A DNA stretch of 57,412 nt, filler included, from Circinaria calcarea (taxonomy: Eukaryota), in assembly GCA_051942165.1 (NCBI GenBank). It is 3 parts of 3 records of this genome, joined end to end, with 100 filler letters (N's around TTAATTAATTAA, not from the genome) between each part and the next. Parts side by side here need not be neighbours in the genome. Positions count along the whole stretch, not along the records: positions 19,202 to 38,286 come from JAVECS010000218.1; 2 more parts are not named here. The stretch is one strand, 5' to 3'. A program made the translations under genes and the position numbers. Under the pieces are notes generated by a model, which was given only the letters and a program-made list of their open reading frames with translations, ran no database searches and was not told the origin of the DNA. Within the stretch, counting starts at the first letter, position 1, and each line of letters opens with the position of its first letter. This document shows, piece by piece, positions 26,751 to 33,409 of this stretch.

Positions 26751-28485
26751 ATGGAGATAGTCCAACATTTTCCAAGTACTCCGACATACTGAGCCAGTTG
26801 AGTGCCGCCAACTGCTGATGCAACTTGAATAGCAAGGCGACACTCAAGCCCTTCTCCATACGGCGATCTTGTCGCCTCAATCTATGAGCTCGACTTGGTT
26901 CTTCGGTCTTCAACAGATGGCAGGATCTTGCGTACTATTAGGTTACCTAACAATCTTTCTGCCCGATGCGAACACCTTCGATGGCTTCCACGGTGGGCAA
27001 AGGGGACACAAGAATGTCAAGACCAGCAAGATCAAGTTTCTTCGAGTTCGCGACTCTTGGTAGCGGACGAAGATACGATACTTGTCTACGACACAGGAGA
27101 CGCTCACTGGCATGCTGAGATTAGGGGGGCATCAAGTAACACGGGCAGGATTAGGAATGTCGAGTTCGGCCACACAGCTGATGAGGTTCTGGTTTTTTCC
27201 GACTTTGGCGTTAAAGCAACTATCTGGTCTCTAAATACCAGTCGGGGAGTCGAAATAAGAGATCCCAAATTTCCTAGCTCCGGTCATAGCTTCCGCCCAG
27301 AAAGCAGTCATCTGGCCATTCTTACGCGGCCTTTAACTCGAGACGTTGTGATGATACTTGCCCCTTTTACGCGAGAGCTTGTCCACAGCTTTACTCTCGC
27401 GACAGTGGACGCTCAAGGATTGAAGTGGAGCCCTGACGGAAGATGGTTGGCAACATGGGATGCCTCGAGTGCAGGCTTTGCAATATACGTCTACACGGCA
27501 GATGGGTGTCTCTTCACAAGGTATATCGCAGACCAAAATGCAGACTGCATAGGGCTTGGAGTTAGAAGTATGGAATGGGATCCCTCCGGTAAATACCTTA
27601 TCGCTGGATCACATGAGAATGAGATCACCTTGCTAGATGCAAAGACTGTAAGCACAATTTTGAGCTAGAACTCTTCATGGCCTTTATGTGCTGACAATGC
27701 TGCAGTTCAGCCCCACTGCTAGATTCTATAATGCCGTTGCTATAAGCGCCCCCAATTCTCTGGTCTGGCAGGAGCAAATCAACGCAGCGGGAGAGCGCAG
27801 CTACACACGTACTTCTCAATCAATCTGTGCACCAACTAGGTCTAACCAGGCGTCATTGCTAACTGGAATCTCACAACTCAGCTTGAACGTGGATGGGTCA
27901 CTTCTTGCCTCACGGTCTGCCTCTACGCCATCAACGATCTGGATCTGGTCTCTTGGTTCTCTAATCCCAGTCGCCATATTAATACATCATTCTCCGGTGA
28001 AAAGCATACAATGGCATCCTATGAGGCCAGATCTGCTTTTGATACATTGCGTGGCGGAAGGTACAGCGTTATACCTATGGAGCGCTGACTGGTCTACGCC
28101 ACGAGTCCTGAAGCTTCCTCTGAAAATAGCTTCTGGATCATCAGAGGGAAGTTGGATTCCGACAAGCACCGATGGTAAAACTAGATTGCTGTTTGGGGAT
28201 AGCCAAAGCCGCGTCATCTGCCGTATTTTTGATGAAGGCGAAACTTCAGAATCGCCTTTGCCAGTACTGTTGCCCATATCATCACACAAATTCAGTGCCG
28301 CAGGGCCGGAGGACATGTTCGATGAAGGAAACTCGATGGATCTATCGCCGATTAAACTCTCCACCAATCATCTCACCAGGGTAATTGGAGCGCCTGAGGA
28401 GTTCAATACGTTTGGCGGGAATTGGGATTCAGAAGATATGGAAGACACGTTTGATTTCAAGCAACATCCTGCCATGGCGCGTTGA
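26751..28485 (+). CDS. WDR8: WD40 protein WDR8/WRAP73 (spindle pole body-associated in fungi); 3 exons
   Basis: Exons 26751-26775, 26833-27647 and 27706-28485. MEIVQHF..SPYGDLVAS..LVLRS, VLVFSDFGVKATIWSL, EIRDPKF, LKWSPDGRWLATWD, YVYTADG, LGVRSMEWDPSG and PSTIWIW match the WRAP73 family pattern. Confidence 0.8.
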
Positions 28486-28941
28486 GATGGTATGGAGAAT
28501 GGGATGAGGCAAATCGGTGGATGAGTTTCTCTGGGCCGGGGTCAAGGCCTTCGTGTTTACTTCATGCATAATGTTCCTGCGTTGATACCCAAAAATGAGG
28601 TAGGATTAATCAGAGATTCTGTATGGGAGGCGTTTTTGCTATATTCGGGCACTACCTACGTTATCTCCCATTTTCTTTTGGGTAATGCCAGTACTCCGTA
28701 GGTGTGTGATGGTGACTGAAGGACTAGAGTCATTTGCTTAGATCATCCCTTAGAATACTGCGCATTGGTATTTGAAGAACCTAAGATATGTTAATGCCCA
28801 AACAGATAAACAATACGATTACTCCGTACGAAGTATCTTATCTTATTTGTGAGCCAAATTCACCTAGACATCCAGCCTTACCATAGGGCTATGCTAGCTT
28901 GGTGCAATTGAAAGGGCACCCAGATGACTTGGCAATTTTGT

Positions 28942-28960
28942 CACACACACACACACACAC
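28942..28960. repeat. (CA)9 microsatellite
   Basis: CACACACACACACACACAC about 75 bp upstream of the ATG at 29035. Confidence 0.95.
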
Positions 28961-29034: not shown

Positions 29035-30776
29035 ATGCCGGTGAAAACCATCTACATTGTGCGTCACGGGGTAAGTAACATGCAGAACAGCGAACCATTT
29101 TCCCTTGGAGAGGTCTGCTCCAAGACAGGGTATATATGACTTGCTAACACCTCCAGTTCCGCGGCAACTGGATCACGCACCCCCACACCGGTGCAACTTC
29201 CGCCCTGGTTCCCTCCCCCACCGGCATCGACTCCGACCCAGCGCTCTCGAGCTATGGCGTCGGGCAAGCAGAGGAACTGGTGGCTGCGCTGCGGGCGATC
29301 GAGCCTCCGATCGATCGCATCTACAGCAGCCCCTTCTACCGCTGCATCCAGACGCTCGCGCCATTCCTGAGAGCGCTGGGTCGGGAGGGCGCAGAAGCAG
29401 GAGCCATTCTCGATCCTGGATTAGGGTATGTAACTGATTGACTCTCGTCCTTGACGAGAATGAAAAAACGCGGTCGCGCTGACGTTCACTGCAGGGAATG
29501 GTATGGAACCGCACGATTCGACCATCCCAGTCCTGCCTCGCCCGCTCTCCTTCAATCCCTCTTCCAAGATCTCTCGCTCCGCTTTACCCCCTCCATCCTG
29601 CCCTCCCCGCGCGGTGAAACGATTCCCGAGCTCCATGATCGTGTGGCCTACACCATGAAGTGCATCTTGGCCGATTGCGCCCGAAATAACGTCGAGACCA
29701 TCCTCATCTGCACACATGCTGCAACCATCATCGCTCTCGCGCGTGTGCTCACGGGGAAGGTGCCCGTAGATAACGAAGAGGAAGACTTCCACACGTACAC
29801 CTGCGGCATCAGCACGTTCATCAGCAAGGAGGAGATGGCGAAGAGGCAGGATTCGGCGGTGGTAATCTCCGCGGACGTAGAAGAGACCTCTGTACCACAA
29901 ACGTCGGTGAAGGAAGTAGTACCAGCCACGCGAGAAGATGGGCTTCCTCCTGGTAAAGAACCGGTACCAGAAGCCTGGTCCGTCCCACCAACTCCTTATC
30001 CCGAGATCCAAGCCTGGACCCCCAACCAGCCCATCCCCTACACAAACTGGCGCGGCACCGGTCTCAACGGCGGCTTTGTCTGCACCGTAGACAGCGACTG
30101 CGACCATCTCACGCACGGCGCAGAACGTCACTGGTAAGCACTCTTCCCTCTCCGTCTGCACCTACTCTATTTTCCTTTTTTCCCCTTAATTCTAACACCC
30201 AATTCTCCTTGGCTGGAATCCACGCAGGAACTTCAAGGATACTGCGTTCAAGTATTAAATCTTGACTCATTCTCTCTTTATTTTCCTTTGGTCCCAACAA
30301 ACCTCTTCACCCCCTAATTTCCTTGGCTCGGGCAAACCTTCGTCCTTCGGTTCCTCCCTTCCCCTTCTTTAAAAAGGGCATCTCTCCTAGTGTGTTATTT
30401 GAATCATTCACCTTTGACACCGACGTATTCGGAAACCCTTTTAGGCATTTTGTCGACTGCGAGTTCAAGCAATGAAAGTTTGAATTGAAATTGGAAAACG
30501 GAAGGCATTCGCTCATTTGTTTCTATGGGATCCGTTAGGCATTTCTCCGGCGATGAGGCGTTTTTGGATCCCGATTCCGATCCTGATCTTGATCCTCATT
30601 CGGGACATGAGGCGGCAACTGAAGGCAGTGGCATTAGATCTGGTTACGGGACTGCGGTGCATGATCAGGCAGACGGTGTTGCTGATAGTGATGTGGGCGA
30701 GGGCGGGAAGGATAATGCGAGTGCGAGTGTAAAAGATGATTCCAATGCGGTGGACAGGGCTAAGCCGAAGCTTTAA
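29035..30776 (+). CDS. Histidine phosphatase / phosphoglycerate mutase family protein (TFC7/tau55 N-domain-like) with candidate alternative last exons
   Basis: Exons 29035-29070 (MPVKTIYIVRHG), 29157-29425 (DPALSSYGVGQA, IYSSPFYRCIQT) and 29495-30133 (GEWYG, LICTHAATIIALARVLTG, DCDHLTHGAERH). A phase-2 donor at 30134 can join 30228-30258, 30445-30475 or 30539-30776. Confidence 0.88.
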
Positions 30777-31199: not shown

Positions 31200-31871
31200 C
31201 TAGTAGAAGAAGCCAATGATTTTGCCGGCCACATGCTTTCGCCTCGCCTCTTCGTGGTCCATGATGCCCGATGAGGTAGTGAGGACAATGTATCCGAACT
31301 GACGCGAAGGCAGCAGCTTGACGACCCATTTCTCAAAGTCCCCTATGCGAACATTGTAGCGGGGGGAGATGACGCCGGTTTTGTTGAGTCTATGGTGCCG
31401 TGAGTGTTAGGACCTTTTGAGTAAGGGGGTGAGACCTACCGTCCGTTGAGCTGGATGACAATCTTGCCAGATCGGTGGTCATCGACTTCTTCGAATTCAC
31501 CAATATAACCTGCAGAGTTGAGCATTAGCATGTCACGGTAGATTAAACGTTTGTACATCAAGTGTGTAAAATCAGTGAACGTGTAAGATCTTCCGCCAAC
31601 CAAAAGAGGATTGATATATCGGGAACTTAAAGGGCAAAGGACGTGTGGTTATGAAGGAATTGAGACCATTGCCTAGTTATCATCCCGAAAGAAAAAATAA
31701 AACACTCTCAGACTACGCGAGAAAACCTCCCCACATACCGTGTCGCTGCATGACGCTCAGGAACTTGACAATGACCTTGGAGCTCGGGCGGATAAGCACC
31801 TGGCGCTTTCCGGCTTTTTCGGCGTTGTTGATGGCGTTGAGCGCATCGTTGAGGACACTGGTCTTGACCAT
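31200..31871 (-). CDS. RPS22: 40S ribosomal protein uS8 (S22/S15a); 3 coding exons
   Basis: Exons 31871-31739, 31509-31440 and 31389-31200 give [87 protein letters not shown]. Confidence 0.98.
31528..31689 (-). ncRNA. snR44: Box H/ACA snoRNA, snR44 orthologue, in RPS22 coding intron 1
   Basis: Hairpin-H box (AUAUCA, 31617-31612)-hairpin-ACA (31533-31531) plus 3 nt. Pocket 1 is GAUAACU..UUUAA and pocket 2 is UCUUACA..UUUAA, each 3' guide starting 14 nt before its box. They complement 18S UUAAA-U-C-AGUUAUC and 25S UUAAA-U-A-UGUAAGA (rRNA sequences recalled from yeast). Yeast snR44 is intronic in RPS22B. Confidence 0.88.
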
Positions 31872-31925
31872 TGTAGCGGTGGTGTGCGGATGAGATTCTC
31901 AACTCGATGGTGGGAGGTGAGGTAT

Positions 31926-32110: not shown

Positions 32111-32371
32111 CTCGTGGTTGTAATGGAATGTCACAGATGAGGTCAAATTGCCGTGCTGAATTTTAGGATCCTTTCTCATGTTCGGGGATTGAGTTGAGTG
32201 ATGCGCTAGTACCCAAGCGCGGCAGGGGGCTGTAACCCTTATCCGCCGATAAGAAATCGAAAGCGTCATTGCCACCGCTGACTCTGTGTATCAAGTGTAG
32301 GTACTTTGTTCCTAGATCTTTTAGATACTTACAGCATAACTACGCGCCTTGATTCTGTGTGATTATTAGCC

Positions 32372-33409
32372 ATGCTAGAAACTACCTGCTGTACATGTGC
32401 AGCTCTACTGTCCCAGATCGAACCACAATACGATGAAAAGACTGAGAAGCCGGTGGCGCAAGACCGACGGTTAGACTGTTGTGGCAGGGTTATCTGCGGA
32501 AAGTGTATAGCTGTACGTTTGTTTTTGAATCATCTATTTGTTGGATCATTGTTGACTGGCTATCGCAGAAGAACAACCGTTTTGCAACCTACTGTAGGTT
32601 CCAGTGTATCGAAGCCACCTAATGTACACCCAGTCTTAATATGCTTGTCAGGTCCTTTCTGCCAATTTTCGTCTGCCCCGTCTCCTCTTCCTCAAGGACT
32701 TCGTGATCCTCCCGCATATTCTCCACCGCCATCCCCGAGGCTTTCGTATGCTACTCTGGCCTCACATCCCGTCAACGACGAAGCCCCGCCTTCATATTCC
32801 TCTCTGACTGCACCAATAAAACCACCGAGCGATACTAAAGACGCGTCATCTAGCTCTGATGCTGCGCCAGACGTCTTGCATTTCCTCCATCCGACCGATA
32901 CGATCAACTCCTTGTCACTCGCCTACAACACCCCTGCCTGGGCTCTGCGGCGCACTAATGGACTCTTCGCCGACCATCTCCTTGCTGCACGACGGACCAT
33001 CCTAATACCGGGGAAATTTTATAAAGGTGGCGTAAGTTTAAGTTCGAGGCCTGTCGAAGGTGAAGAGGAGGAGGTGAGGAGAGGAAAGGTAAGGAGGTGG
33101 ATGGTGGCTTGCAAAGTCGCGGAGTAGGTGCTTTTTCTTGCCAACCCTCTATTTTAGCATATGGAGTCCTGAGTCAGTGTAAGAACTAATGACAATTTGA
33201 GTTTGACCCCTTCTTTTAGATACGACGTTGCCCTGCTCTATCTCGAACAAGCCGGTTATGATCTCGACCTAGCAATCGAAGCCTACAAGGCGGATGAAAA
33301 GTGGGAGAAGGATCATCCAATGGAGAGTAACGTGAAGGGCAAGATGAAAAGCCCGAATCCGGCAAGACGGAAATACGGTGGAATGGGTATTAGCGGACAG
33401 TTATCATGA
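32372..33409 (+). CDS. Intracellular protein with RING-like Zn finger, LysM domain and UBA-like C-terminus; 4 exons
   Basis: Exons 32372-32512, 32569-32593, 32652-33123 and 33220-33409. Cys pattern CCTC..CCGRVICGKC..YCPFC; LysM HFLHPTDTINSLSLAYNTPAWALRRTNGL..RRTILIP; UBA-like YDVALLYLEQAGYDLDLAIEAY; no signal peptide. Confidence 0.8.

Follow-up and report, generated by a model that had tools for sequence, protein, structure and literature searches.

A putative conserved choice of 3' splice site that would add or withhold a peroxisomal signal on a Huf/Tfc7-type histidine phosphatase in Circinaria calcarea

Fungi produce cryptic peroxisomal isoforms of glycolytic enzymes by alternative splicing, as described for GAPDH in Ustilago maydis and PGK in Aspergillus nidulans (Freitag, Ast and Bolker 2012, as cited in PMC9549241, PMC4207609 and PMC12316961). 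The 6-phosphogluconate dehydrogenase of Candida albicans is likewise cited as localised dually through alternative splicing (Strijbis et al. 2012, as cited in PMC9549241), and the PP2C phosphatase Ptc5 of Saccharomyces cerevisiae carries a type 1 signal for peroxisomal targeting (PTS1) (Stehlik et al. 2020, in PMC9549241). The gene studied here lies in a stretch of 57,412 nucleotides (nt) joined from three records of the assembly GCA_051942165.1 of the lichen fungus Circinaria calcarea; this stretch is referred to as the window throughout. It comprises four exons on the plus strand (29035-30776) and encodes a histidine phosphatase domain of the Huf/Tfc7 type. Its last intron offers three acceptors, named here a, b and c in their order along the strand. 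The reading through c ends in a PTS1-type tripeptide, the readings through a and b end without one, and the exons behind a and c both appear to be conserved as coding sequence in other fungi.

As described in the citing articles, the GAPDH and PGK systems resemble the window gene in that a splice choice at the C-terminus of one gene yields a product with PTS1 or a product without it, in keeping with a conserved logic of dual localisation. They differ in that the enzyme here is a Huf/Tfc7-type histidine phosphatase and not a glycolytic enzyme, and in that its PTS1-less form has a conserved mini-exon of its own, which starts with W-x-F like the PTS1 exon and is present in two copies. The cited Candida case concerns a different enzyme, and splicing decides on its peroxisomal signal as is proposed here. 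Ptc5 is, like the window protein under our proposal, a phosphatase that reaches peroxisomes via Pex5, but its fold is unrelated and, in the account cited, it is routed via mitochondria and not by splicing. The mechanism proposed below would belong to a known kind, namely cryptic peroxisomal targeting by alternative splicing. The protein family, the dedicated and conserved mini-exon without PTS1, the spread over two fungal classes and the extra copy in this genome would be new. The full-text literature, in whose coverage most subscription journals are missing and to which the supplements of Freitag 2012 may add further candidates, yielded no paper that places a Tfc7/Huf/YNL108C-type phosphatase in peroxisomes, and the peroxisome proteome tables for Histoplasma in PMC13343957 do not list such a phosphatase by name.

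The last intron starts at the phase 2 donor GTAAGC (30134-30139), in the context CAC TG|GTAAGC, which splits a conserved Trp codon; retention of the intron would read TGG TAA, a stop directly after the Trp. Acceptor a (CAG, 30225-30227) follows a branch-like CTAAC at 30192-30196, which is canonical as read from the sequence, and opens mini-exon a (30228-30258) with the reading W-NFKDTAFKY-stop. Mini-exon b (30445-30475), opened by a TAG at 30442-30444, reads W-HFVDCEFKQ-stop, and the TAG at 30536-30538 opens exon c (30539-30776), which reads W-HFSGDEAFL...AKPKL-stop over 78 residues, with the -PKL codons at 30765-30773 and the stop at 30774-30776. The branch-like motifs of b (TTGAC) and c (CTCAT) are weaker than the canonical one of a, and the intron measures 94 nt to acceptor a and 405 nt at its full length to acceptor c. 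All three acceptors lie in the same phase, possess their own AG and complete the same Trp codon. The predicted products comprise 324 residues with a, 324 with b, 393 with c and 315 from the unspliced transcript, and PKL is the end of the c reading, while the a, b and unspliced readings lack a PTS1. The product via acceptor c is identical letter for letter to P0001 (393 residues), the NCBI protein of a metagenome-assembled genome named Circinaria calcarea.

When the sequence was re-read, the donor, the three acceptors, the exon coordinates and the readings of the initial annotation all proved correct, as did the equal open length of a and b and the restoration of the Trp in all three; the list of AGs confirms that each acceptor is the first AG after its branch-like motif. 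The term "alternative terminal exons", which had been applied to them, is given up here, as the three AGs are better seen as 3' splice sites that compete within a single last intron, and nothing observed calls for separate poly(A) sites. Apart from these, a fourth copy of AG|GCATT is present at 30503-30509 as a partial repeat of the c acceptor and would read W-HSLICFYGIR-stop; it sits 34 nt before the c acceptor, inside a short direct repeat (30492-30509 and 30526-30543).

Exon c is the ancestral tail. Proteins of named Leotiomycetes, Lecanoromycetes, Dothideomycetes and others end their domain in ...G-x-E-R-x-W and continue with the same family-wide tail, which consists of W-x-F-S-G-D-E-x-F, a variable stretch and a final [SA][RK]L, the commonest last tripeptide being -SRL. 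Of 56 distinct protein tails, 42 have a canonical end of the form [SAC][KRH][LM], and so do 39 of 52 distinct tails of the genomic loci introduced below; most of the remaining tails are near-canonical (PKL, PRL, GKL, TKL and similar tripeptides), and a small number do not resemble a PTS1 (STL, and PCA in locus L026). The -PKL of the window falls outside this strict consensus. P0193, at 57% identity the closest relative found to have the exon c reading, ends in ...AVDRAKSKL versus ...AVDRAKPKL in the window. According to PMC13343957, -PKL fused to mNeonGreen is peroxisomal in Histoplasma capsulatum, and two Pex5-dependent matrix proteins of Histoplasma, FatD and UaZ, end in PKL. With a PTS1-type end conserved in the family and with -PKL alone sufficient for import in Histoplasma (PMC13343957), the case for a peroxisomal signal in exon c is stronger than was claimed at the outset. 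The whole c tail (residues 316-393) is predicted to be disordered in the AlphaFold2 model, with a predicted local distance difference test score (pLDDT) below 50, in keeping with a flexible arm on which a PTS1 is presented.

The comparative set for exon a consists of 80 metagenome loci fetched with alignment A1; the source DNA of the close relatives P0002, P0003 and P0193 lies outside it. P0002 and P0003, which are 78% and 77% identical to the window protein, both end at the Trp. Among the 80 loci, 18 have the Trp contiguous with the tail and are presumably either intron-less genes or cDNA-like contigs, one lacks the motif, three end before the c exon and 58 contain an intron. These 58 loci and the window share a phase 2 intron inside the Trp codon, with 42 distinct introns between them and a donor that is nearly always GTAAG or GTGAG, and this intron is evidently old; by a second count it occurs in 62 of the 80 loci, 59 of them with the c exon within reach. 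In several loci its first AG, located about 50-60 nt into the intron, opens an a-type mini-exon with the reading W-x-F-K/N-D-A-E, or a near variant of it, followed by a stop. Examples are W-SFKDAEMF-stop (L015 and L064), W-GFKDAEYL-stop (L034), W-GFNDAEIF...-stop (L023), W-RFQEAVY-stop (L035), W-GFKDADC-stop (L040 and L042) and W-GFRDADC-stop (L048). The c acceptor follows 40-70 nt after the mini-exon in these loci and gives HF[QS]GDE...[STY]KL, and the DNA core of their mini-exon, TTCAAGGATGCTGAG, aligns with TTCAAGGATACTGCG in the window. Their proteins are only 40-48% identical to that of the window over the best segment; an intron that can still be aligned at this distance therefore appears to be constrained and not neutral.

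Counted manually, an in-frame W-x-F mini open reading frame upstream of c occurs in 20 of the 28 distinct introns of at least 100 nt versus 1 of the 14 shorter ones; in this lone short case, L053, which looks spurious, the AG lies 8 nt from the donor. W-x-F is the reading at 22 of 63 intronic AGG sites versus a background of 3.55% (67/1888; binomial P = 1.6e-16), a value that overstates the independence of the sites, as these are related by descent. The conservation in orthologous introns on which the initial annotation had staked its proposal is found for exon a, which keeps frame, acceptor and Trp, but not for exon b, which is absent from the 80 loci. By this comparison exon a shows itself to be an old, conserved, putatively alternative mini-exon and not a chance open reading frame. 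A single-base difference separates closely related loci at this place: about 57 nt into the intron, eight L036-type loci (L036-L039, L041, L043, L045 and L046) read TAT where the near-identical L040, L042 and L048 read TAG, a difference by which the alternative splice site for W-GF[KR]DADC-stop was naturally lost or gained.

A longer a-type exon, W-x-F-x-[IMV]-E-..., lies in longer introns, of 239-446 nt, from loci with tails like those of named Dothideomycetes, and its variation follows the codon structure. Across five related loci, its first 13 codons contain 5 variable sites, all of them at third positions and all synonymous, and over 23 codons the variable sites are distributed 3/4/13 over the three codon positions. 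Insertions and deletions within the mini-exon are multiples of three in L019, L021 and L079, and the stop is kept. On this evidence the mini-exon of the Dothideomycete-like loci is coding. The annotated proteins show the same forms: among 111 classified proteins, 16 are of the a-form, 28 of the c-form, 49 stop at the Trp, 6 read into the intron and 1 joins a and c. NCBI models of the a-form include those of Zymoseptoria tritici, Fulvia fulva, Pseudocercospora eumusae, Hortaea werneckii, Cercospora berteroae, Recurvomyces, Cryoendolithus and Elsinoe; the Cercospora kikuchii model is of the c-form versus the a-form in C. berteroae. The expectation that gene predictors would report one form only is borne out by these numbers, and the retained intron, which stops after the Trp, explains the 49 of 111 proteins that end there.

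Two further observations were made. The Elsinoe fawcettii model P0187 joins an a-type to a c-type exon and ends in -PML, which may reflect cassette use or a prediction artefact. The hexamer TTACGA, within CTTACGA[CT], is located 18-26 nt upstream of both a-type and c-type acceptors in the introns after the Trp codon of L016, L017, L024, L025, L027, L019, L021, L079, L059, L067 and L070, with 19 copies in 3812 nt of those introns versus 13 in 96,558 nt of the remaining sequence of these loci, both strands counted. It differs from the usual CTRAC branch motif, its reverse complement resembles a TGGTAAG donor, and it is absent from the window intron.

Within the window, the similarity among the three exons is unevenly distributed. 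Exon b and the start of exon c reach a DNA score of 20, equalled by 3 of 1000 shuffles, with ten identical bases at the acceptor and first codons, and exons a and b reach 18, equalled by 18 of 1000 shuffles; between a and c no DNA similarity is found (792 of 1000 shuffles score as high). Upstream of exon a lies an intronic block of 50 nt (30165-30214) that recurs upstream of exon b (30276-30328) with a score of 31, which none of 300 shuffles reached. Exon b looks like a mosaic copy with a c-like 5' end and an a-like 3' end, and this, together with the repetition of the a-side block before b, suggests that the intron grew by local duplication. The initial view that exon duplication and not chance lies behind the array finds partial support in the b-c pair, the a-b pair and the repeated block, but none in a and c at the DNA level. 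At the protein level, the pattern [HN]F-x(1,2)-D-x-x-F, chosen once the data had been seen, gives 3 matches in 114,820 six-frame positions, which are taken to be a, b and c. An RNA gene or small nucleolar RNA as the reason for the long intron was rejected in view of the Rfam search, which assigned it to no family (best match E = 0.53, 16 bits versus a gathering score of 86), and of its fold, which is no more stable than that of shuffles (z = +1.08).

We propose that the choice of the 3' splice site in the last intron sets the C-terminus of the phosphatase. Use of the distal acceptor (30538) would add exon c, whose -PKL, at the end of the disordered 78-residue tail, would be read by Pex5 and direct the protein to peroxisomes. 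The proximal acceptor (30227) would add the nine residues of exon a and a stop, giving a signal-free form for the cytosol or nucleus, and a retained intron would place the stop straight after the Trp. The bulk of the product may be the a-form, with the peroxisomal c-form as a smaller, regulated share; exon b is probably a later mosaic copy in this lineage with its frame intact. We consider it rather probable that this organism uses both a and c and that the choice between them sets localisation. The use of both acceptors is inferred because both are conserved, and use of a is supported by its canonical CTAAC and by an intron of 94 nt, a size like that of introns 1 and 2. That exon b is used as well is doubtful. 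Of the three-way last-exon switch put forward in the initial annotation, the conservation of a and c as coding sequence stands, but b is without counterpart, so that a three-way choice is not shown. To the most far-reaching form of the reading we assign a probability of roughly 0.3: an old switch of the alternative-last-exon kind would toggle a PTS1 on a Huf/Tfc7-type phosphatase in Lecanoromycete-type and Dothideomycete fungi, its PTS1-less mini-exon would have been duplicated from the start of the PTS1 exon and again here to give a three-way choice, and splicing would set the peroxisomal share of a conserved phosphatase not described in peroxisomes so far.

Several observations weigh against the proposed choice between a and c, besides the relatedness of the sites in the binomial test. 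Eight of the 28 distinct introns of at least 100 nt contain no mini open reading frame, among them the introns of 279-281 nt in L028, L032 and L033. The FKDAE-type and the x-[IMV]-E-type mini-exons may be homologous or may have two separate origins, and the a-form models in the databases may be ab initio predictions. The AlphaFold model of P0001 built with alignment A1, with pLDDT below 50 over residues 316-393, does not explain in structural terms why the exons share a W-x-F...F start. Other points on this side at the same time support the strongest alternative, according to which only exon c is used here, exon a being a decaying ancestral mini-exon and exon b a dead duplicate, both within an expanded intron of 405 nt. 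P0001, the single public model of the window gene, uses c alone; the a acceptor is lost by one substitution in the eight L036-type loci, and the mini-exon is apparently dispensable in some lineages. Exon a of the window is the most divergent of its group, with T-A for the A-E of the FKDAE consensus, plus K-Y. None of the 80 metagenome loci contains a counterpart of exon b, which is without any comparative support, and the intron bears the signs of local duplication described above. However, in both a and b the AG, the Trp-restoring G and an open frame of the same length have been kept, and acceptor a, with the best branch motif of the three and an intron of typical length, would have to be skipped by the spliceosome on its way to c. 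We regard the exclusive use of c as unlikely.

Less probable still is that the proximal acceptors are decoys which tune the level of the c-form mRNA through unproductive splicing, a long 3' untranslated region and possibly nonsense-mediated decay, without a working second protein. The nine residues added by a or b are few, an a-form mRNA would gain about 520 nt of 3' untranslated region, and a retained intron would bring about the same truncation. A decoy does not readily account for the conservation of the mini-exon peptide, however: variation over 13 codons in five loci is synonymous only, FKDAE is common to proteins that are 40-48% identical, and the stop position is kept in L019, L021 and L079.

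Exon a could also be conceived as an internal cassette, as a weak donor AA|GTATTA at 30252 would turn it into an in-frame insert of 24 nt, NFKDTAFK, between the Trp and c (or b). Length and phase 2 fit, and the joined model P0187 is of this form, but GTATTA lacks a G at position +5, the other FKDAE-type mini-exons, as read from their DNA, have no donor at that place, and for 15 of the 16 a-form models the mini-exon forms the C-terminus, which makes the cassette a very improbable explanation. Finally, it is hardly credible that short open frames after intronic AGs resemble exon c by chance, and for exon a this is already very unlikely: control AGG sites do reach the BLOSUM score against the start of c of exon a in 1.8% and that of exon b in 5% of cases, and a and c share no DNA similarity, but exon a is conserved across lineages, and the pattern W-x-F-x(1,2)-D-x-x-F, defined post hoc, is matched by 0 of 1400 other AGG sites on both strands of the window.

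The gene upstream of the last intron has a regular structure. Exon 1 (29035-29070) runs from the ATG to the RHG motif and has a phase 0 donor, GTAAGT. Exon 2 (29157-29425) and exon 3 (29495-30133) encode the first and second half of the His_Phos_1 domain (PF00300) with 35.1 and 25.4 bits, both above the Pfam gathering score of 21.7; exon 3 is 100% identical to P0001 and ends with the TG of the split Trp codon. Intron 1 (86 nt) and intron 2 (69 nt) contain the branch-like motifs CTAAC and CTGAC, as read from the sequence. The RHG motif comprises residues 10-12 of P0001, and the second conserved His, H176, is invariant across the 18 aligned sequences of A1; both elements have catalytic roles. 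A profile search places the protein closest to Huf (YNL108C, 2yn2_A, E = 7.1e-50) among solved structures, followed by 6yj6_C (E = 9e-46) and 2yn0_A (E = 1.5e-45), and the next matches after Huf/Tfc7 belong to Sts/UBASH3 at about 1e-15.

The window protein shares the RHG motif with Huf of S. cerevisiae (YNL108C; PDB 2yn2) and with the N-terminal phosphatase domain of Tfc7/tau55 (PDB 2yn0, 6yj6_C), and all of them end the domain in ...G-E-E-x-x-W-x-F. Unlike the window protein, the aligned part of the Huf chain has neither a c-type tail nor a PTS1. In Tfc7, the C-terminal half after the phosphatase domain binds tau95. This TFIIIC-binding half is absent from the window protein. Identity with the TFIIIC subunit tau55 was rejected, as the profile match is confined to residues 1-259 of the Tfc7 chain 6yj6_C, which has 435 residues, and the tail of the window protein has no Pfam family and a pLDDT below 50. 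By its profile matches the protein is a phosphatase domain alone, of the Huf/Tfc7 type and not a TFIIIC subunit; the initial label "TFC7-like phosphatase" is kept for the domain but does not extend to tau55. An acidic and Pro-rich insertion of about 45 residues (window 29820-30000, about residues 215-275 of P0001) is common to P0001, P0002 and P0003, absent from the other 15 sequences of A1 and of low pLDDT.

As to the surroundings, a convergent neighbour on the minus strand (31200-31898) encodes the ribosomal protein uS8 in two exon pieces (Pfam Ribosomal_S8), and only about 420 nt separate its stop codon from that of the phosphatase. A (CA)n microsatellite occupies 28936-28955, about 80 nt upstream of the phosphatase start codon, and the flanking open frames at 27664-28485 and 32363-33127, both on the plus strand, show weak matches of the WD40 type and one to LysM below the threshold.

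If the proposed switch is real, fungal peroxisomes would contain a conserved Huf/Tfc7-type histidine phosphatase whose delivery is tuned by the choice of a splice site. It would also provide a clean, comparatively supported case of conserved alternative splicing with an effect at the protein level in filamentous ascomycetes, where few such cases exist. The a, c and retained readings would explain why annotations disagree between species (16 a-form, 28 c-form, 49 Trp-ending and 6 intron-reading among the 111 proteins). Many other ascomycetes share the layout of a and c, and in them, too, one enzyme is probably sent to two places.

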